From a virus (taxonomy: Duplodnaviria > Heunggongvirae > Uroviricota > Caudoviricetes), in the IMG/VR virus record IMGVR_UViG_3300048503_000086: a DNA stretch of 21,565 nt, one strand, 5' to 3'. A program made the position numbers and the translations under genes. Positions 4,147 to 20,458 of the stretch are shown here, in pieces. Position 1 is the first letter of the stretch; each line of letters opens with the position of its first letter. The notes under the pieces were generated by a model, which worked only from the letters and a program-made list of their open reading frames with translations, searched no databases and was not told the DNA's origin.

Positions 4147-5340
4147 TACCTTACGCGGCGAGAAATGATCTGTTCTTGTCTCTTGGACCGGATTTTGGTA
4201 CATCATAGCCGGTTCGCCGATGGATCGGCGGACGAGGCATCGGTCCATGAGGCGAATGGAGGTCAAGGATGGCTTGGTTTCGAGTGCGTTTGTCGGAGGA
4301 AGAGCAGCGGATTGTGGGGGAGGAGCGATGGGAGCATCCCCACGAGACCGACACGACGGAAAATGGAGGTTCTGTGGCTGCTGCACCATGGACTTACCCG
4401 AGAACAAGTGGCGAAAATCGTCGGCATCGGATCGGCAACAGTAAAACGATACGCAAATGCATACCGGGACGGCGGCCTCGATGGTCTGCGGCGCTGGGCG
4501 AAAAAGGGGCCAACCGGTTCGTTGGAGGCCCATCGCGAATTGCTCGCCGAGTCGTTCCGGGAACGACCGGCTTCAAGTGTGGCGGAGGCGGCCGACCGCA
4601 TCGAGCAATTGACTGGGATTCGTCGCGGGCCGACGCAAACGCGGTTGTTCTTGAAGAAGCTCGGCTTGCGTTGGCAGCGGATGGCTGCCATTCCCGTTCC
4701 CCCCAAAAAAGTGTCGAGGAACACGTGGCGGAGCAGCAGCGATTTCTCGCTGACGAACTGAGGCCCCTGCTGGATGCCGCCCAGGCCGGTCAGGGGCACG
4801 TGTTCTTCGTTGATGCGGCGCACTTCGTGTTCGGCACCTTTCTGTGCTGCTTGTGGTCGTTCGGGCGGCTGTTTGTAAGGGCGGCGTCGGGGCGGCAGCG
4901 ATTCAACGTCTTGGGGGCTTGGAACGCGGTGACGCGGGAGTTGATTGCCGTGACAAACACCACGGTGGTCAACACGGAGACCATGTGCGAACTGCTGCGC
5001 GAGGTCGCGGTTCGTGGACTGGTGGGGCCGATCACGTTCGTGCTGGACAACGCCCGCTACCAACGAAACGCCACGGTGCAGGCTCTGGCCGCCCAATTGG
5101 GGATTACCTTGCTCTACCTGCCTTCGTACTCCCCGAACCTGAATCTGATTGAGCGGCTGTGGAAGTTCATCAAGCGAAAGGAACTTTACGGCAAGTACCA
5201 TGCCCGGTTCGACGACTTTCGGACCGCGATTCAGACGTGTCTGTCTCAAGTCAGTACGACACACCGGAATCCCCTCAAAAGCCTGATGACCCTCAACTTT
5301 CAGACATTCGAGAACGTATCACTATTGTCCGCGTAAGGTA
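4147..5340 (+). mobile_element. IS630-family insertion sequence, 1194 bp
   Basis: Terminal inverted repeat TACCTTACGCGG (4147-4158 and 5329-5340), flanked by TA at 4145-4146 and 5341-5342. Confidence 0.93.
4269..5336 (+). pseudogene. IS630 transposase in three frame segments (apparent extra base near 4335-4350; -1 shift at CCCCCCAAAAAAG 4699-4711)
   Basis: N-terminus MAWFRVRLSEEEQR in one frame, the HTH region (RRKMEVLWLL...TVKRY) in the +1 frame, and the DDE part (FFVDAAHF, VLDNARY, LPSYSPNLNLIERLWK) back in the first frame. Confidence 0.8.
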
Positions 5341-8969: not shown

Positions 8970-9641
8970 GATTGTAGAAGCATCGTTTGAGGCGGGGGGC
9001 GTGCCGCGATCGCAAGATCCGCACGCCTCCTGCTTTTCCTCCCCATGGTAATGTTGCGAAGCGACCGCGGCGCGCCACAAGCAGGGGGCGGGGTCCTATT
9101 TTCGCATTCTTGGGGCGGGGTTACAGGGCGGGGGGCTGCCCAGGCGGCGGGATGCGTCTCTGGTACTTCAAGCCGCGCAGCCGCTCTCCGTCCGGCAAAG
9201 TTCAGGACTCAGGAACTACCGCAAGAACGCGACCGGGCAGTATGCCGGCTGGCACTCGAACGCCCAGCTTCTCGGCAAACTGCTGCCTGGGGACCGCATG
9301 TGGATGGTCACGTCGGGCAAGGCCCTTCAGCAGGAGGCCGAACAGGCGGGGTTCTTGGTGGCGGTATGGCAGGTGGCGGAGGCCCTGGGGAATCCGGGCG
9401 ATGATCCGACCTACCCCAAGGATCGCTACCGCTACCGGGTCGTGCCAAACGAGGGGGAATCCATTACACTGAATGAGCCGGTGCCGGTGGACCACATCCT
9501 CCGGCCGGCGCGAGGTAGCAAGGCCGTGTCCATCGGACGGTACTTGCAGGGACCAAGAAGACTGGATGAATCAACCATCCGCCTCCTGCGTGTGGCCGCG
9601 GGGCCGGATATGGCAATCAAGTGGTTGAAAGGAAATCGAGC

Positions 9642-12437
9642 ATGAGCATCCTGAAACCGTGGCGTCAAGTCGCCACCCCGCACGCTGACATCCGCCAGGG
9701 CAAGTTCGACACTTCGGTCTTCGCCGCCGACCTGGGCGAAGTGCTGGCCGGGCGCGGGGCCGTCGATTACCGCGACGCCTGCACCTTCTTCTCCAAGACC
9801 TACCTGACGGAAGGGCTAACCCAACTGGTCATCGACGTGATGCAGCGGTTGGCCGGCTCGGGCAAGACCGAGGCGGTCATCCAGCTTCAAACGGCTTTCG
9901 GCGGGGGCAAGACGCATACCCTGTTGACCCTCTACCACCTGCTGACCAGCCCGAACCCGGTCGCCAAGCTGCCGGAAATCCAGGCTTTGCTCGCCGCCGC
10001 CGGCCTCAAGCAGATTCCCACCGCCCGGGTGGCCTGCCTGGTCGGGACCGCGCTCAACGCGACTGCCGATCGAACCTTCTGGGGCGACCTGGCTTGGCAG
10101 CTTGGCGGCGAGCGGCTCTACGCCAAGCTGGCCAAGTGCGACGAGCAGAAGGTCTCGCCGGGCACCAATCTCCTGGGCGAAGTGTTGGCCGAGGCCGGCC
10201 CGTGCCTGATCCTGCTCGATGAAGTCCTGGCCTACCTGCTCAAGGCCGGTGGGGTCAAGGTCGGGGAGAGCACCCTGCGCGGCAACACCCTCACGTTCCT
10301 GCACGAATTGGGGATCGCCGTGGCCAACTGCCCTACGGCCTGCATGATCGCCACGCTCACCAGCCAGCTTGCCGAGTACATGGACGAGGGCGGCGAGCGG
10401 GCCTACACGTCGCTGGAAAAGGCGCTGGGACGGGTGGAGAAGGTCCGGCAGACCGTCGTGGGCGCTGAGATTTACGAGGTCATTCGCCGCCGCCTGTTCG
10501 AGAACCTCGGCGACCCGGCCGACCATCGCGCCGCGGCCGAGGCGTACTGGCAGGTCTACCGGCAGCTTGGCGAGGACGTGCCCTCGGGCTGCCGCGAGCC
10601 GTCTTATCGGGACGAGATGATCCGGGCCTACCCGTTCCACCCGGAGTTGATCTCCGTGCTGTACGAGCGATGGGGGTCGATCCCCGAGTTCCAGCGGACC
10701 CGCGGCGTGCTCCGGCTGCTCGCCGATGTTATCAGCAACCTCTATCAAGGGAAAGACAACGATCCCCTGATCCAGAGCGGGTCGGTGAACCTCGGCGCGT
10801 CGGCCGTGCGCGGCGAGTTGGTCAAACACACGGGCTACGGCAGCGTTTTTCACGGCGTCATCGAGAGCGACATCTCCGGCACCCACGCCAAGGCTCCTGA
10901 GATCGACCGGCAGCTTGGCAGTGAGTATGCCAAGGAGAGCGTGTCGGAAAAGCTCGCCCGGTCGATCTTCATGTACTCGTTCAGCGGCGGACAGCAGCGC
11001 GGGGCCACCCTGCCGCAGTTGCGATTGGCCGTGCTCAACCCCGAGATGGCCCCGCCGTTCGTCTCCGACTCGCTGGACCGCATGACGAAGCGGCTCTGGT
11101 TCCTCTATCAAGACAGCGGGCTCTACCGGTTCGACTCGCGGCCCAACCTCAACCGCATCCTGGTAGACCGGGAGGAAATGGTCCGTTCCGAGCCGGATAA
11201 GGTCAAGGAGTTTGCCAAGAAGACGCTCAACGATTTGATCGGCGACGCCGCTTTTCGCGTCTACCGCTATCCCGAGGAAGACCGCGACGTAGCTGACGAG
11301 CCACGGCTGAGTCTCGTTGTGCTGGACCTGCACCAGGTTGCCTCTGAAGATGAAATGCCCAAGGCGACCGAGGATTTCGTCACGGGCATCCTAAAGCAAC
11401 ACGGCAAGGGGTTCCGCAAGTACGCCAACGTGCTTGTTTTCCTAGCCCCCGACCAGCAGCGGGCTTCGGAAGTCACCGACGCTGCCCGGACGCTGATGGC
11501 CCTGCGAAACGTGGACGAAGACAAGGCGACGAAGAAACAGTTGTCGGAGGAGCAACTCAAAGACCTGGCCCAGCGCCTGAAAGAGGCCGAGGCCCGCCTG
11601 CCGGCGGCCCTGACGACGGCCTACCGGATCGTCCTGGTGCCCGCAGAGAAGAAGACCCTGCGGGTATTCGACATGGGGATTTCCAAGTTCAGCGGTCCAA
11701 GCACGTTGAGCAGCAAGGTCTTGGAGAAGTTGATCGACGAACAGATTCTCAAGGGGTTGGACCCGAAGATACTTATCGGCGAACGATTCGCGCTCTGGCC
11801 CGAGGACCAGGAAATGGTCAACGTGCGAACGCTGGCCGACTACTTCACCCAACTGACGCACCTGCCCCGACTGCTGGGACCGGACGTGCTGCCAGCCTGT
11901 CTGGCACAGGGCGTCCACCGAGGACTGTTCGGCTACGCTCTCGGCGACAGCGAGAAGAGGCAGTTCGATACCATCTACTATAAGGACAAGTCCATCACCG
12001 CCACGGATTGCCAGATCATCGAGTCGGCATGGCTGCTCCGGCCGAAGGTGGCCGAGGCGCTCATGCCGAAGCCGGAGCCGGCGACGGTGCCGACAACCGG
12101 AGGCGGCGGCACTGGTGTCGTTGGTGACGGCGGCGTTCCGACTCCCGGAGATGGCGAGGAGCCCTGGGCACCGGGCGGCGGGGGTGGCGTGCAGATCGTC
12201 GAGGGCGAGCGCCGGCTGAACAAGGTCCGCATCGAGATGAAGAACCTCCCCTGGGAGAATTGGAACGACATTTACAACGAGGTCATCGACCCCTTGGCCC
12301 AAGAAGGGGCCGAGGTCCGTTGCGACGTGATCGTCGTCGCCAAGGGCGAGGCGGCGATCCGTGAGAACACGATTGAATTGGGTATCAAGGAATCCCTTGC
12401 CCAGCGAGGCATTCAAGCGGATATTCAGACGGGGTGA
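9642..12437 (+). CDS. DUF499-family AAA+ ATPase of a restriction-like defence system
   Basis: N-terminus KPWRQVATPHADI...FAADL, Walker A TAFGGGKTH, Walker B LILLDE, and YPFHPEL...FQRTRGVLRLLA. ATG 9642 is coupled to the upstream stop. Confidence 0.92.
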   Translation: MSILKPWRQVATPHADIRQGKFDTSVFAADLGEVLAGRGAVDYRDACTFFSKTYLTEGLTQLVIDVMQRLAGSGKTEAVIQLQTAFGGGKTHTLLTLYHLLTSPNPVAKLPEIQALLAAAGLKQIPTARVACLVGTALNATADRTFWGDLAWQLGGERLYAKLAKCDEQKVSPGTNLLGEVLAEAGPCLILLDEVLAYLLKAGGVKVGESTLRGNTLTFLHELGIAVANCPTACMIATLTSQLAEYMDEGGERAYTSLEKALGRVEKVRQTVVGAEIYEVIRRRLFENLGDPADHRAAAEAYWQVYRQLGEDVPSGCREPSYRDEMIRAYPFHPELISVLYERWGSIPEFQRTRGVLRLLADVISNLYQGKDNDPLIQSGSVNLGASAVRGELVKHTGYGSVFHGVIESDISGTHAKAPEIDRQLGSEYAKESVSEKLARSIFMYSFSGGQQRGATLPQLRLAVLNPEMAPPFVSDSLDRMTKRLWFLYQDSGLYRFDSRPNLNRILVDREEMVRSEPDKVKEFAKKTLNDLIGDAAFRVYRYPEEDRDVADEPRLSLVVLDLHQVASEDEMPKATEDFVTGILKQHGKGFRKYANVLVFLAPDQQRASEVTDAARTLMALRNVDEDKATKKQLSEEQLKDLAQRLKEAEARLPAALTTAYRIVLVPAEKKTLRVFDMGISKFSGPSTLSSKVLEKLIDEQILKGLDPKILIGERFALWPEDQEMVNVRTLADYFTQLTHLPRLLGPDVLPACLAQGVHRGLFGYALGDSEKRQFDTIYYKDKSITATDCQIIESAWLLRPKVAEALMPKPEPATVPTTGGGGTGVVGDGGVPTPGDGEEPWAPGGGGGVQIVEGERRLNKVRIEMKNLPWENWNDIYNEVIDPLAQEGAEVRCDVIVVAKGEAAIRENTIELGIKESLAQRGIQADIQTG

Positions 12438-13971: not shown

Positions 13972-15033
13972 ACATGAAGTCCTTTTGCCAGCCGCCTAGA
14001 TTGCGCCCTCGTAACCCAGGGCTAGGCGGCGGCCAGGCAGGATGTGATGAGATCCGCTTCCCTTGTCCAGTCCCTTCCGAGTCGGTAAACTGTCAAAGTG
14101 TCCGGGCTTCCGCCCGTTCGTGCGGTGGAAGCCCGGTTACAGGCCATAGCAACATCGCTACTTTCGTACCCCCATTTGCAAGGGTGACCCATATAGCGTA
14201 GAGTATCAGTGACAACTTGAATTGACGCGCGTGCGTCAAGTTTCTGCTTCCCGAAAAACGACCAACCTGAGTCTGCGGACTCTTGAACAGATGAAGCAGT
14301 GCTTGGACCGCGCCCCTGCATGGGGGCGTCGGCCGAGTGCTGTTCATCTGTGCCCCTTGGTCGGGGTTTCGGGAGCAGCCTTGGTTGTGCGCCACGAGGC
14401 GCACAGATGGAATGAGTGAATGGCCCTCAAGGCCCGTCACTCCGCTGCTCGTTCAGGCGGGCGGCGCGTTGTTGGGACGTAGCTGCGGGCCGATGCTGGC
14501 TCGCGGTGAAAGAGCTGTCCCTGAAAGGTACTGGTGAGGCGCGAGGCAAACCGCCAAGAGGCCAGGCTTGACGAAGAAGTGACATGGTGAGTAACAGCGA
14601 AGCGGGTTTCAACCCACGGGAAACTGCTCCCCCTCCTCGTAATACTTTTGCCTAGCCTTGCAGGTAGCGGAGCAAGGATATACGGGGAGGCGATCGCGTT
14701 TCGACGTAAGAAGAAACGACCGAACCTGGTCAGAACCAATGCCAGGCCAAAGGATGCAACAGGCCACCTGTTTACCCTGCTGCCGATCGGGATTCCGCAG
14801 AGCGCGGCTCGGGTTGGTCTTTAACCGCCACCTAACTCACTTCGCAGAGTCCGTCTGTGTGAACGTGGGAGGCTTCTCGGGGAATGCCAAGGCGAGCAGT
14901 CCGCCGATGACCACGAGAAGCGTCGGAGCCGCCGTAGTAGTCCGAGGCTGGGAAAGCCAGCCACATGGCGAAGGGCGGCAGTCTTTTGGATTTTCGGCGC
15001 AGAGGTCACCGGATGGGATTCGGAGGCATCTCC

Positions 15034-15386
15034 GTGAATGTCGGTGAAATGCAACGAAAGCTGAGCCAGTGGGCGGAACAGCGACTGGAGGAGTTGGAGT
15101 ATCCGCTGTTTGTAGGGCGGAAAGACCTGCGACTTCACGACCTGTACCACCTGCTCTATGACGGAACGTGGCTGCGTCAAGCCCATGAACACGTTTGCCG
15201 CAACCGTGGGAGTCGAACCGCGGGATGCGACGGCCTGAACATGGGCGTGTTTAACGCCGACCTGGAGAATCAACTTTCCAAGTTGGCGGAACAACTGCGG
15301 ACGCAGACGTTCCGGCCACATCCCGTGCGACGGGTGTACATTCCCAAGAAGAACGGTAAGCTCCGTCCCCTGGGAATTCCGACGGT
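15034..15386 (+). pseudogene. ltrA: Group II intron RT/maturase, N-terminal fragment (RT0-RT2)
   Basis: GGAGG RBS and GTG start. Sequence MNVGEMQRKLSQWA...GSRTAGCDG...PVRRVYIPKKNGKLRPLGIPTV ends at the recombinase element. Confidence 0.88.
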
Positions 15387-15404
15387 ATAGGCATAATGCA
15401 CTCC

Positions 15405-17486
15405 TTACAATGAGCGTTGGGATTGTTGGCTGCGACTCTTCTGGATTCGGGTGGATTTCTCCGCCCATCGCTGCAATCGGCATTCCGTTTCCGGATCGAG
15501 GGTGATCCACAACGCGGAACCCCGGTTACGGCGGCGGGCCAGGACAACGCCACGTTCGATCCAGTAATACACGACGCCTGGGCTGACATCGAGTTTCTCA
15601 GCCACCTGGGCTACCGTCAGTTCTTCCGGTCGCTTCAGCGTCGGGGCTGAAATCCGATGCTTGTAGCGAATCCAGGCGATCATCGACTGCGTAAAAGACT
15701 TGCCCTTCGCGCTGCGGAAGCCCTGCTGGTTGAGCGTGTCGGCGATCTCCGCGTCGGCCTTCTCCGTCGCCAACGATCGGACCTGCTCCACAAGATCTTC
15801 AGGATACCGCAGCCGATCAGCGATGGGAAGCGGCCGGTTCACGGCGATGTCTTCGCAGGCACCTCCTTGCCAACGAACGTGGAGCAGGACCTGTCGAGGC
15901 TCGGTCAGCCGTTCGACCGTGATGTCCTTCACCAGCAATCGCAGCATCCTCTTCTTGTCCTTGGGGGGCGTCGTGGGGGCATTCCATAAACGCGGAAACT
16001 CTTTGGCCAAAGCCAGAATCTTCGCCCGTTGCTCCACTGTGACGACCAAGCCATGGCTGCGTTGGAAATCGGCGAACTCCTGTCGTATCTCCTCCAGGCG
16101 GCTGAGGGCCTCGTTCCAACGTTGCTCCAAGGAAGCCGCGACGAGACGGTTGGCCGGGTCCACCTGCTCGTAGCGCCGCTGGGCGAGCTGGGCCTCATAC
16201 TCCGCGCGCTGGAGCCGCATCCGCCATTGCCCCTGGGAGGCATCGTCACGTTTCTCCAGTTCCTGGAGCACGTCCAGAGAAAGGTGGAGCTGATCGGAGT
16301 TGACCACCTGTACGACGCGGTTAGATACCGCCTGGTCGATCAGACCGCAGGGAATGCTCATGCAGGACTTGCGTGAACGGCCTTGCCGCTTACGCCAGTT
16401 ACATTCATAAACCGGATAGATGCCGCCGTTGCCTTGGTAGCGCGGCGTTAAGCGACGGCCACAAACACGACACACCAAGAGCCCTTGCAAAAGGGCCAAA
16501 CCCTCGCGTGCCGGTCCGCTCAAGAGCGTGTCCTCCCCGTTCGTGCGGTTGCGTTCGAGGGTGTCCAGATTGTGCAGGTATTCGTCAAAGGAAAGGTAGC
16601 CCGGGTGGTGGTTCTGGATCTCCACCAGCCACGCGGGCCGAGGCATCGCTTTTACCCGTGAGCGGACCTCGCCGTTGGCAAGGACGTGCTTGACACAACG
16701 ATAACGGCCAAAGGCATAGACTCCTGCATACGCCGGGTTTTTCAATACGCTCCGAACCCGATCGTCCGTCAAGTGTCCCCAGAAGATTCGGCCGTTCCAA
16801 ACGCCGCCGTAGGCCCGCTTGGGGAACTTCAGCCCCCGCGCTGCGAACGCCTGGGCCACGGCATACGCGCTGCCTGTTTCACGGAACAGGGCAACCAACA
16901 ACTCCACGGCCCCGCGCACCTCGGCGTCAGGGTCCAGCACGATTGCGTTGGCGTCATCATAACACAACCCGACGGGCAACGGGAAACGCAACTCACCCTT
17001 CTTGGCTTTGTTCAGCTTGCCGCCCTGGAGGCGGACGTGGAGGAAATGCAACTCCGCCTGAGACATCTGGGCCTTCATCCCCAGCAGGAGGCCATCGTTG
17101 AAATCCGCCGGATCGTAGCAACCATCCTCGTCGATGATCAGCGTGCCGGTCAATGCACAGATCTCGATCAAGCGGTGCCAGTCGGCGTTGGATCGCGCCA
17201 GGCGTGAAGCCTCCAAAGCAAACACGGCACCCACTTCTCCCAGCGAGACTTCGGCTATCAACTTCTTGAAGTCGTCTCGGCCGCTGCTGGTCGCCCCCGA
17301 GATTCCCAGATCCCGGTCCAGGATGCGCATACTGGTTGCTGGCCATCCCAGCGAGATTGCCTTGTCCTTCAAGGCATACTGCCGTTCGGTGCTCTCCTGA
17401 TGGTTCCGCACCTGCCCCATCGTCGATTGACGCACGTAGACATACGCCGTCTTCTGCCGGTGGGATAACGTCACCTGGGTCGTCAT
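15405..17486 (-). CDS. Large serine recombinase (resolvase + recombinase + Zn-ribbon + coiled coil + C-terminal HTH), 693 aa
   Basis: Catalytic AYVYVRQST and EASRLARS, Zn ribbon LVCRVCG...YEC, C-terminal HTH ELTVAQVAEKLDVSPGVVYYWI. Frame intact. Confidence 0.93.
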   Translation of the reverse strand: MTTQVTLSHRQKTAYVYVRQSTMGQVRNHQESTERQYALKDKAISLGWPATSMRILDRDLGISGATSSGRDDFKKLIAEVSLGEVGAVFALEASRLARSNADWHRLIEICALTGTLIIDEDGCYDPADFNDGLLLGMKAQMSQAELHFLHVRLQGGKLNKAKKGELRFPLPVGLCYDDANAIVLDPDAEVRGAVELLVALFRETGSAYAVAQAFAARGLKFPKRAYGGVWNGRIFWGHLTDDRVRSVLKNPAYAGVYAFGRYRCVKHVLANGEVRSRVKAMPRPAWLVEIQNHHPGYLSFDEYLHNLDTLERNRTNGEDTLLSGPAREGLALLQGLLVCRVCGRRLTPRYQGNGGIYPVYECNWRKRQGRSRKSCMSIPCGLIDQAVSNRVVQVVNSDQLHLSLDVLQELEKRDDASQGQWRMRLQRAEYEAQLAQRRYEQVDPANRLVAASLEQRWNEALSRLEEIRQEFADFQRSHGLVVTVEQRAKILALAKEFPRLWNAPTTPPKDKKRMLRLLVKDITVERLTEPRQVLLHVRWQGGACEDIAVNRPLPIADRLRYPEDLVEQVRSLATEKADAEIADTLNQQGFRSAKGKSFTQSMIAWIRYKHRISAPTLKRPEELTVAQVAEKLDVSPGVVYYWIERGVVLARRRNRGSALWITLDPETECRLQRWAEKSTRIQKSRSQQSQRSL

Positions 17487-17616
17487 GGCACACCTCCTGG
17501 GCTGGGGAAAGAGGAGGTGTGTCGGCCAGATAAGCCTGGATCATATTGGCCACGAGAATGGCCAGGGCCTGAGTGTCGATCGGTTCGCTGTCGGGTGCCA
17601 TGGTTGTACCGGACAC
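17483..17616 (-). CDS. Probable short coding segment upstream of the recombinase (MSGTTMAPDSEPIDTQALAILVANMIQAYL...); 3' end uncertain
   Basis: AGGAGG RBS before GTG 17616 and an amphipathic helix. The frame has no stop at the recombinase start and runs on as an overlapping frame to 16993. Confidence 0.35.
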
Positions 17617-17711
17617 GCCGCCTCCTGGTGAAGGCCCGCGCGCTGGCCGACCTTGCGGCAGGCCAACCGCCAGCCGAGTTCTGGTTCACCGACCGATCGG
17701 GACGGCAGTCT

Positions 17712-17741
17712 GTTATGCCCCAAAGCGATTTCATGGGTCAA
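17712..17741 (-). promoter_or_regulatory. Putative sigma70 promoter for the recombinase operon
   Basis: Minus strand TTGACC (17741-17736), 18-nt spacer, CATAAC (17717-17712). Confidence 0.5.
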
Positions 17742-17743
17742 GA

Positions 17744-18043
17744 TCACTTTCTGCTTCGTCTGAGAAGGGCGATCAGTTCCGCCAATTGACGAAGACAAAG
17801 GCCGTCGAGAATTGGCAACGGGCTGATACCCAACGCAGCCACGGGAGACGGATCGGCCCGGTCGGTCCATTCCCGCGGCACGGCAAACGTGCCGTGGGAA
17901 GTTCCTTGGAGGATCAGCGTTTCAATGCCCCGGACTCGCCGGAGCTTAAGGATCGGGAACTGCTGCCCCTTGAGAGGGTGGAACGGATGGGTGATCTCCG
18001 CCGATCCCGAAAGGGCGCTGGGGTGAGGTGCAGTTACCGGCGA
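17744..18043 (-). CDS. DUF5372/Y4bD-like ORF body lacking its own start; the start codon lies at 15394, across the att junction
   Basis: SAEITHPFHPLKGQQF...TFAVPREWTD pattern. Joins in frame to ATG 15394 when the element is circularised (103 aa). Confidence 0.72.
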   Translation of the reverse strand, partial: SPVTAPHPSALSGSAEITHPFHPLKGQQFPILKLRRVRGIETLILQGTSHGTFAVPREWTDRADPSPVAALGISPLPILDGLCLRQLAELIALLRRSRK

Positions 18044-18065
18044 CCGTGCCCACCATGGATCGCAT

Positions 18066-18580
18066 CCGGACAAGATCGGGCGAAGGTGTTTGCCCAAGTG
18101 GACCACTTTGCTTTCTGGCAAATGGCCTACTGGCTCGCAGGCAAGTACCGATGTTCCACCTCGAAGATCATGCGGCGGTTTTACCGACGTGTCGCCGGGT
18201 CCATGACCCTCGCCACCGACGATATCGCCCTTGATCCCATCAGGGTGATTTCACGTCGGCGTTTCCGCCTTCGCAGCTTCGACAATCCCTACACGACGCC
18301 AGGTGCCAAGCTGATCCGCTCGGAGCAGTTTGGTCTGGAACCGGGCTGGCAGGGGAACGAACGCAATCCCGGCGTGGAGGACCTTCGCCATCTGGTGCTG
18401 CAACGGGACCAATGGACCTGCCAGCACTGCGGCGAGGGAATCGACCCCTCCGATTACGAGATTGACCACATTCGTCCTGTCCGCAGGTTCAAGTCTGTGG
18501 CCGCGGCCACTTTTCTGGAGAACCTTCAGACTTTATGTGGCCCATGTCATCGGGCCAAAACTCAGGATTCCAAGAGACGG
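18066..18580 (+). pseudogene. ltrA: Group II intron IEP C-terminal fragment: end of maturase (X) domain plus HNH endonuclease
   Basis: AKVFAQVDHFAFWQMAYWLAGKYR, then CQHCG...EIDHIRPV...NLQTLCGPCHRAKT, directly upstream of domain V. Boundaries approximate. Confidence 0.85.
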
Positions 18581-18581
18581 A

Positions 18582-18673
18582 GAGCCGGATGCTTTGAAAG
18601 TTGCAAGTCCGGTTCGGAGGGGGGAGCGGTGGAAACGTGCCTCATGGGGTAACGCGCCCCGCTCCTACCTTAC
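18582..18673 (+). ncRNA. Group II intron domains V and VI
   Basis: 34-nt hairpin GAGCCGGATGC-TTTGAAA-GTTGCAAGTCCGGTTC with the AGC triad, followed by GGAGGGGG and a D6 stem ending CCTACCTTAC. Confidence 0.93.
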
Positions 18674-20389: not shown

Positions 20390-20458
20390 TACAGCCAACG
20401 GGAATCGAACTCGCATTGCCGGCTGGAAGCCGGTGTCCTGCCGTTAGACGATGGCTGT
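20390..20458 (-). tRNA. Atypical tRNA with a TCC (Gly) anticodon, about 2 nt short; possibly pseudo
   Basis: 7-bp acceptor ACAGCCA/TGGCTGT, D arm GTCT-AACGGCA-GGAC, T loop TTCGATT, anticodon arm CCGGC-TTCCA-GCCGG. No encoded CCA directly after the discriminator. Confidence 0.7.

Follow-up and report, generated by a model that had tools for sequence, protein, structure and literature searches.

A DUF5372 gene split across the attachment site of a serine-recombinase element in group II intron reverse transcriptase genes

In this study we describe a small element from a Caudoviricetes virus record of IMG/VR (IMGVR_UViG_3300048503_000086), of which one strand of 21,565 nt, hereafter called the window, was analysed as a whole. 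The element is 2670 bp (2.67 kb) in size, carries its genes on the minus strand and lies inside a plus-strand gene for a group II intron reverse transcriptase (RT). It encodes a large serine recombinase (LSR), by which it is probably moved in cut-and-paste fashion, and a protein of the DUF5372 family. The attachment site attP separates the start of the DUF5372 gene from its body, so that the gene is whole only when the ends of the element are joined. We consider it highly probable, on the sequence evidence laid out below, that this is a true split gene whose expression depends on the joint.

The LSR gene (15405-17486, minus strand) encodes 693 aa. Its matches to the Pfam families Resolvase (PF00239, E=4.4e-19), Recombinase (PF07508) and Zn_ribbon_recom (PF13408) assign the product to the large serine recombinases; it also matches HTH_17 in Pfam and the integrase family phrog_95 in PHROGs (E=4.9e-51), and a helical insert (coiled coil) occupies approximately residues 395-480. 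As stated in the original prediction, the LSR stop codon TAA is followed on the minus strand by a ribosome-binding site and a start codon (GGAG-TGCATT-ATG, with the ATG at 15394). These signals and four more codons are contained in the P' arm of attP (15381-15404, minus strand), where the Shine-Dalgarno (SD) motif GGAG is found at 15404-15401, the sequence GTGCA at 15401-15397 and the ATG at 15394-15392.

The body of the DUF5372 gene is found at the other end of the element (17744-18049, minus strand), running from codon -18 (GCA) relative to the domain to the stop codon. It matches PF17342 with E=2.5e-16 and 59.9 bits, against a cut-off of 25, over profile positions 1-74 of 78, and the domain begins at the I of EITHPFHP. 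The body has no start codon of its own: the 18 codons that precede the domain within the element contain no ATG, GTG or TTG, in agreement with the headless open reading frame (ORF) that had been predicted. Joining the two ends of the element gives an ORF of 106 aa (MPIPS-ARS-PVTAPHPS...), in which the ATG-side codons come from the P' arm and the rest from the P arm onward. In the integrated element the same ATG opens a 47-aa peptide ending at 15251, as had also been noted.

The crossover was placed at the dinucleotide that reads CC on the plus strand and GG on the element strand, because the symmetry of attP, the assembled joints of relatives and the restored RT motif agree on this position. 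It is found at 15379-15380 on the left, beside the recombinase-distal element end, and at 18049-18050 on the right. The attP site is an imperfect palindrome, GTGCA..ACCGTC-GG-CACGGT..TGCAC, with GG at its centre. Its P arm (18028-18048, minus strand; CACGGT....AACTGCAC) is an imperfect inverted repeat of the P' arm and also codes for residues 7-13 of the joined protein, and the conservation of this arm tracks the DNA motif rather than codon wobble. When the two element ends in the window were aligned with the joints of relatives, the crossover fell at GG on the element strand as well. Excision in silico at CC yields IPKKNGKLRPLGIPTMDRI, which encodes the canonical uninterrupted RT motif PLGIPTMDR, and the insertion point corresponds to the RT codons for LGIP/T (the slash marks the point of insertion). 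The site thus combines inverted repeats around a non-palindromic 2-bp crossover with an RT motif that is uninterrupted after removal of the element. Among the relatives, elements of the GG type are antisense in the RT gene and those of the CC type are sense, which would follow from a central dinucleotide that determines the polarity of integration.

The original prediction had located the crossover at a shared CGAC or GT. The actual crossover lies 9 bp outside this CGAC, and the joint proposed there would leave the non-canonical GIPTVPTMDR in the RT and does not match the assembled joints. Since the two candidate crossovers lie 9 bp apart, the reading frame of the proposed joined ORF is unchanged, whereas the joint contains 9 more bases, the protein has 106 instead of 103 aa and the circle has 2670 instead of 2661 bp.

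Joined ends of such elements exist, as had been anticipated: the exact joint was found in four metagenome contigs that represent two element variants. The protein P0004, which is 80% identical to the DUF5372 protein of the window, is encoded on three of them (L001, L002 and L003), and there the 3' end of the LSR gene leads through TAA-GGAGTGCATT-ATG directly into DUF5372. L001 is a contig of 2303 bp whose ends overlap exactly over 141 nt, so that it can be closed to a circle of 2162 bp; L002 and L003 originate from other samples. The second variant is represented by the protein P0005 on contig L166, which shows the same joint and whose LSR is 85% identical to that of the window over residues 171-693. 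An internal deletion of ~508 bp is shared by the variant on L001, L002, L003 and the integrated copy L086. This variant has lost LSR residues 1-110, including the catalytic serine region, and would therefore need a full-length copy to act in trans. The protein P0083 on L167, a candidate joint by its length, was rejected because it proved to be integrated, with a flank that supplies a GTG, and a scan of viral contigs with the attP pattern gave 0 matches.

A total of 160 related loci from genomes and metagenomes were surveyed, and 75 distinct att pairs among them were analysed by scripts. The relatives span many phyla, with LSR identity among them down to ~50%, and in nearly all of the 160 loci DUF5372 is followed by a same-strand LSR of ~690 aa. 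Cultured carriers of complete copies include Bradyrhizobium sp. CSA207 (L062) and Lamprobacter modestohalophilus DSM 25653 (L067). The P' pattern GGAG-GTGCA-NT-ATG-N11-dinucleotide (GG or CC) is kept in 75/75 distinct relatives, and the same dinucleotide is present at both element ends in 71/75. Every relative has a start codon at the P' position (72 ATG and 3 GTG), including a sister pair that differs exactly there, with GTG in L040 and ATG in L042. An SD-like motif accompanies this start codon in 73/75; the mirrored position in the P arm has such a motif in 5/75 and a start-codon triplet in 3/75. None of the 75 joined leaders has a stop codon in frame 0, while stops occur in the other two frames in 54-61 of them. 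Column shuffling gave frame-0 leaders with a stop in a mean of 20 and a minimum of 10 cases over 2000 shuffles, so the joined leader is open beyond chance. The predicted fixed frame between the ribosome-binding site and ATG on one side and the headless DUF5372 on the other is thereby borne out across the family.

The conservation of DUF5372 starts 18 codons before the Pfam domain. Upstream of codon -18 the sequences are divergent, as are the N-termini assigned by gene finders, and in-frame stops of the flank are never nearer than codon -18. Within the domain, variation is mostly at third codon positions, a sign of purifying selection. The ORF that is read from the P' ATG in the integrated state is short and variable (median 34 or 52 codons).

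A promoter-like motif, TTGACC-N18-CATAAC, is located directly 3' of the DUF5372 stop codon and directed toward the LSR gene (17712-17741, minus strand). It had been proposed to transcribe the recombinase and then DUF5372 on the circle. The motif is indeed present and is kept across subfamilies as TTGAC(A/C)-N17-18-TAnnAT, but the copy in the window fails a strict sigma-70 scan, by which no promoter was called in 15200-18200. Upstream of DUF5372 the element interior consists of the 21-bp P arm, and the only promoter-like motif lies downstream of the gene, toward the LSR, so that transcription from it would reach DUF5372 only around the circle. Because this motif is wholly inside the element, rather than having its -35 and -10 hexamers on opposite ends, what the joint assembles is a reading frame. 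In three-gene relatives (e.g., L129, L145 and L106), a perfect palindrome of the type TCAGACCAGT..ACTGGTCTGA is located after the promoter-like motif, within the first 60 nt after the DUF5372 stop, and judged by its sequence it looks like an operator.

Taken together, these features would give the following scheme of expression. With the ends joined, in an excised circle or a head-to-tail dimer, the order of transcription would be promoter, LSR, attP and DUF5372, and DUF5372 would be the last gene of a circular operon. The P' arm would supply the SD motif, the ATG and four codons, and codon 6 onward (ARSPVT...ITHPFHP...) would be supplied by the other end. The 106-aa protein would then be translated from the joint, probably coupled to the LSR stop codon 10 nt upstream. 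In the integrated state, DUF5372 would be left without promoter, ribosome-binding site and start codon.

DUF5372 might instead be made while the element is integrated, from a non-canonical or weak internal start or from one in the flank, the SD-ATG being merely part of the recombinase binding site; we regard this as improbable, although several observations agree with it. A TTG is present at codon -5 in 34/75 relatives, in approximately half of the integrated copies the flank contains an in-frame ATG, GTG or TTG ahead of its first stop codon, the flank in the window offers a TTG at 18121, the RT codons GAT-GGN often give an ATG in sense copies, and starts in the flank are called by gene finders. 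However, the column at codon -5 is a Leu/Ser column that alternates between TTG and TCG, and an SD motif precedes this TTG in 0/52 TTG copies. No internal start is conserved among the homologues, which would have spoken against a split gene; in 33/75, codons -18 to -1 are free of ATG, GTG and TTG, and several relatives are startless up to the upstream stop. The flanks vary in sequence and orientation, and no promoter is found upstream of DUF5372 within the element. Half-site symmetry does not account for the SD and the ATG, since both are missing from the mirrored half-site. Finally, the avoidance of stop codons is significant over the four P' codons and the P arm together.

A product of the SD-ATG in the integrated state itself, either a short regulatory peptide or, in sense copies, the downstream part of the RT, is very unlikely as the purpose of these signals, with the shared frame of DUF5372 as a mere side effect. 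The ATG of CC-type elements is in frame with the RT sequence ..PTVLDRFIQQ.. for some codons, yet the ORFs are short and variable in both orientations (5 to ~60 codons as a rule), most copies are antisense in the RT, and such a product leaves unexplained both the startless DUF5372 body and the frame that is open to the crossover. Being short, these ORFs also led to rejection of the P' ATG as an RT restart in sense copies.

A structural model of the DUF5372 protein was made with AlphaFold2 (pLDDT 81) and consists of a disordered leader, an SH3/KOW-like barrel and a C-terminal helix. Fold searches returned generic SH3/KOW/Tudor barrels only (best Z 6.5, with a root-mean-square deviation of 1.6 over 49 residues; best Foldseek E-value 0.016). 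Sequence relatives of DUF5372 were not found in PHROGs or PDB, nor was a relative with a solved structure. With a score of 0.76, as compared with 0.00 for the best of 3 controls, the model of a complex between the LSR and DUF5372 reaches the mark applied to such models, as do 51/78 solved complexes and 2/108 mismatched pairs. At least 73% of contacts are shared between the runs, and the partner has a pLDDT of at least 71. On the LSR the modelled interface is composed of residues 338-344, 394-414 and 479-545, which in the model are the zinc knuckle, the beginning of the coiled coil next to DBD2 and the latter half of DBD2 itself. On DUF5372 it is composed of the invariant HPFHPL motif and the C-terminal helix. 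Verified recombination directionality factors (RDFs) are reported to bind the DBD2/coiled-coil junction (PMC12286644, PMC11722253).

The complex model is the evidence for the earlier suggestion that DUF5372 works with the recombinase, and with somewhat better than even confidence we take the protein to be a cofactor of the LSR. Its predicted binding site on the LSR is the boundary between the zinc-ribbon domain (DBD2) and the coiled coil, and binding there may modulate the choice of att pairs for recombination. In the LSR itself, residues 614-656 (window 15405-15650, minus strand) form a C-terminal HTH_17/MerR-like domain, and residues 614-653 match phrog_7506, which is annotated as a recombination directionality factor (E=2.9e-4). 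From these two matches, an Xis-like DNA-binding module appears to be fused to the C-terminus of the LSR.

The mechanism that we prefer is a ratchet encoded in the state of the DNA, in which a factor made only after excision would favour or lock integration, or would block the back reaction. In a variant of this ratchet, the factor would prevent immediate re-insertion into the donor site. Alternatively, DUF5372 could be a classical excision-promoting RDF that is expressed from the circle and acts in trans on other integrated copies. The full proposal built on the ratchet, namely a hyperparasite of group II introns with a reverse directionality cofactor, whose gene is assembled by excision and dismantled by integration, is put forward tentatively and is more doubtful than either the split gene or the cofactor role. 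If true, it would represent a new logic of serine-integrase directionality control, in a compact system of two proteins and a 44-bp site.

Several points weigh against the interpretation as a whole, from the joint-dependent expression of the split gene to the role of its product. Under the classical rules, a factor that binds at the junction site promotes excision, yet DUF5372 would be made only after excision. The complex of the LSR and DUF5372 is a model prediction, and the -10 hexamer in the window is weak. The contigs with joined ends fit a circle and a head-to-tail dimer equally well. Of the four joint contigs, three have an identical sequence, from the variant without LSR residues 1-110, and this variant may be unusual and non-autonomous. 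No more joint-type proteins were found among ~160 further homologues from two other subfamilies. The distance between ATG and crossover is partly set by the geometry of the att site, and the 75 cases of a conserved frame are not independent. The frame alone is therefore partly geometric, and the independent evidence consists of the conserved SD motif, the conserved ATG or GTG and the avoidance of stop codons.

It is very unlikely that the split is real but functionless, DUF5372 being a remnant in decay that lost its start to the arrival of attP: the subfamily of the window is already without the middle gene DUF6788 and truncated DUF5372 remnants are known (e.g., L009, L047 and L057), but the coding pattern of the domain, the invariant HP.HP and WT residues across phyla, the adjacency of DUF5372 to the LSR in nearly all loci and the high-scoring prediction of LSR binding all speak against decay.

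The host of the element in the window is an interrupted group II intron. The N-terminal part of its RT, to ..KLRPLGIP, is encoded at 14965-15380 (plus strand), as identified from the translation and the restored motif. On the other side, the remaining intron (18051-18673, plus strand) consists of TMDRI, a deleted RT, a maturase/HNH part (HNH, E=1.6e-9) and the intron domain V, which was matched to RF00029 at 18580-18673. Only residues 289-446 of the RT of a relative can be aligned to the host RT, and the reading frame shifts. At 18051-18100 (plus strand), ~275 residues' worth of the host RT gene, corresponding to fingers and palm, are gone. This loss begins ~9-25 nt past the crossover, and the target-side half-site beside the element is therefore kept.

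Across the family, the joined flanks restore the RT motif IPKxxGxxRPLGIP/TxxDRxxQ in most of the ~80 distinct sites, and a few copies are off target. As read from these site sequences, the whole family is a parasite of group II intron RT genes. Its members can be recognised by the gene order DUF5372, DUF6788 and LSR on one strand and by insertion at LGIP/T; the element in the window conforms to this, but its subfamily is without DUF6788. DUF6788 (PF20586) is a zinc-ribbon protein of ~115 aa encoded between DUF5372 and the LSR in ~100 loci, which is most of the family (e.g., L013:6346-6690, L062:6354-6695 and L093:2048-2401). No mention of DUF5372 or DUF6788 was found in the literature, and nothing relevant was found on serine recombinases in group II introns; the family of RT-targeting DUF5372/DUF6788/LSR elements is undescribed in the literature searched.

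Chimeric flanks that combine two different introns reciprocally, with an A-left/B-right and a B-left/A-right arrangement, were seen for some copies, namely in L021, L022, L024 and L026, which belong to the metagenome-assembled genome OZ244976.1 and its relatives. Such flanks point to recombination between element copies, probably by inversion. The copy L005:515-865, located beside a D5-type primase gene, has a normal LSR-distal end in the RT motif and no P arm, and its DUF5372 protein begins, at an ATG of its own, with 27 unrelated residues; to judge from this organization, the copy is perhaps immobilised. In CC-type copies, an ATG arises from the conserved RT Asp-Gly codons (GAT-GGN); it is in frame with DUF5372 and precedes the I of ITHPFHP by 27 codons. 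Gene-finding programs frequently take this ATG for the start, and in such database proteins the I of ITHPFHP is residue 28. With the true start 2.6 kb away, the N-termini of DUF5372 proteins in databases would be arbitrary and derived from the flanking DNA.

In the window, DUF5372 and the LSR gene are separated by a gap of 257 bp. The region upstream of the LSR gene (17487-17616, minus strand) contains, besides the SD of the LSR, the portion of a small ORF that is conserved, with the motif LAILVANMIQAYL. This ORF starts with GTG at 17616 or ATG at 17601 and runs on in another frame across the LSR start. Its motif was found in 73 relatives, and its frame relative to the LSR start is identical in 72. 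The encoded motif is L..L(V/I)ANM(I/L)(Q/E)..L, and the ORF has its own SD (AGGAGG-4 nt-GTG). By this conservation it could encode a further small protein or a leader peptide. An 83-aa ORF (17734-17483) was rejected as a gene, with no family match and a composition rich in Arg, Gly and Ser. Elsewhere in the window, a DDE_3 (IS630-type) transposase gene (4269-5336, plus strand), a gene for a 938-aa DUF499 protein (9621-12437, plus strand) and a tRNA gene (20390-20458, minus strand) were found.

Serine integrases are major tools of genome engineering, and the problem still to be solved is how to control their direction. With a cofactor gene that is present only while the element is excised, direction would be tied to the state of the DNA in a new and self-contained manner. 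The widespread DUF5372 family would gain a testable function, and a very common element would be seen to live inside another mobile element.

Among known systems, Tn4451 is likewise a small element that is moved by an LSR through a non-replicating circle and in which the joining of the ends switches on a circle-stage gene. There, a hybrid promoter forms at the circle joint for the recombinase TnpX itself, whereas in the DUF5372 element it is the coding sequence, not the promoter, that is divided between the ends, the gene concerned would encode an accessory protein, and the target is one RT motif. In some mycobacteriophages attP lies inside the repressor gene, and in Mx8 it lies inside intP, so that the protein made depends on integration. 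Integration alters the C-terminus in these phages, with the same start in both forms, while in the DUF5372 element it removes the ribosome-binding site and the start, and no product is expected; recombinase family and gene function differ as well. In the circles of the insertion sequences IS911, IS2 and IS30, which are moved by DDE transposases, the joined ends form a hybrid -35/-10 promoter that boosts integration. The creation of an expression signal by end joining is common to these circles and the DUF5372 element, but the former have no split reading frame.

State-dependent transcription of int across attP in the excised form is described for ICEclc (from Pcirc) and ICEKp1 (from P3'end) (PMC13023037). 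As proposed for the DUF5372 element, only excision allows transcription from a promoter at one end to pass through attP and enter a gene at the opposite end. These elements differ in being large and conjugative with tyrosine integrases; their int gene keeps its own start and is also transcribed in the integrated state, from a host promoter, and no ORF crosses attP. Among the RDFs of serine integrases are SprB, Bxb1 gp47, phiC31 gp3 and those recovered by virtual pulldown (PMC12286644, PMC11722253). DUF5372 resembles them in its small size, in the lack of a fold common to the group, in being encoded beside the integrase and in its predicted place at the DBD2/coiled-coil junction. RDF genes, however, are complete in the prophage and induced before excision, whereas by its sequence organization DUF5372 could be made only after the ends are joined. 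An accessory gene with its start and its body on opposite sides of attP sets this element apart from Tn4451, ICEclc, ICEKp1, the mycobacteriophages and Mx8.

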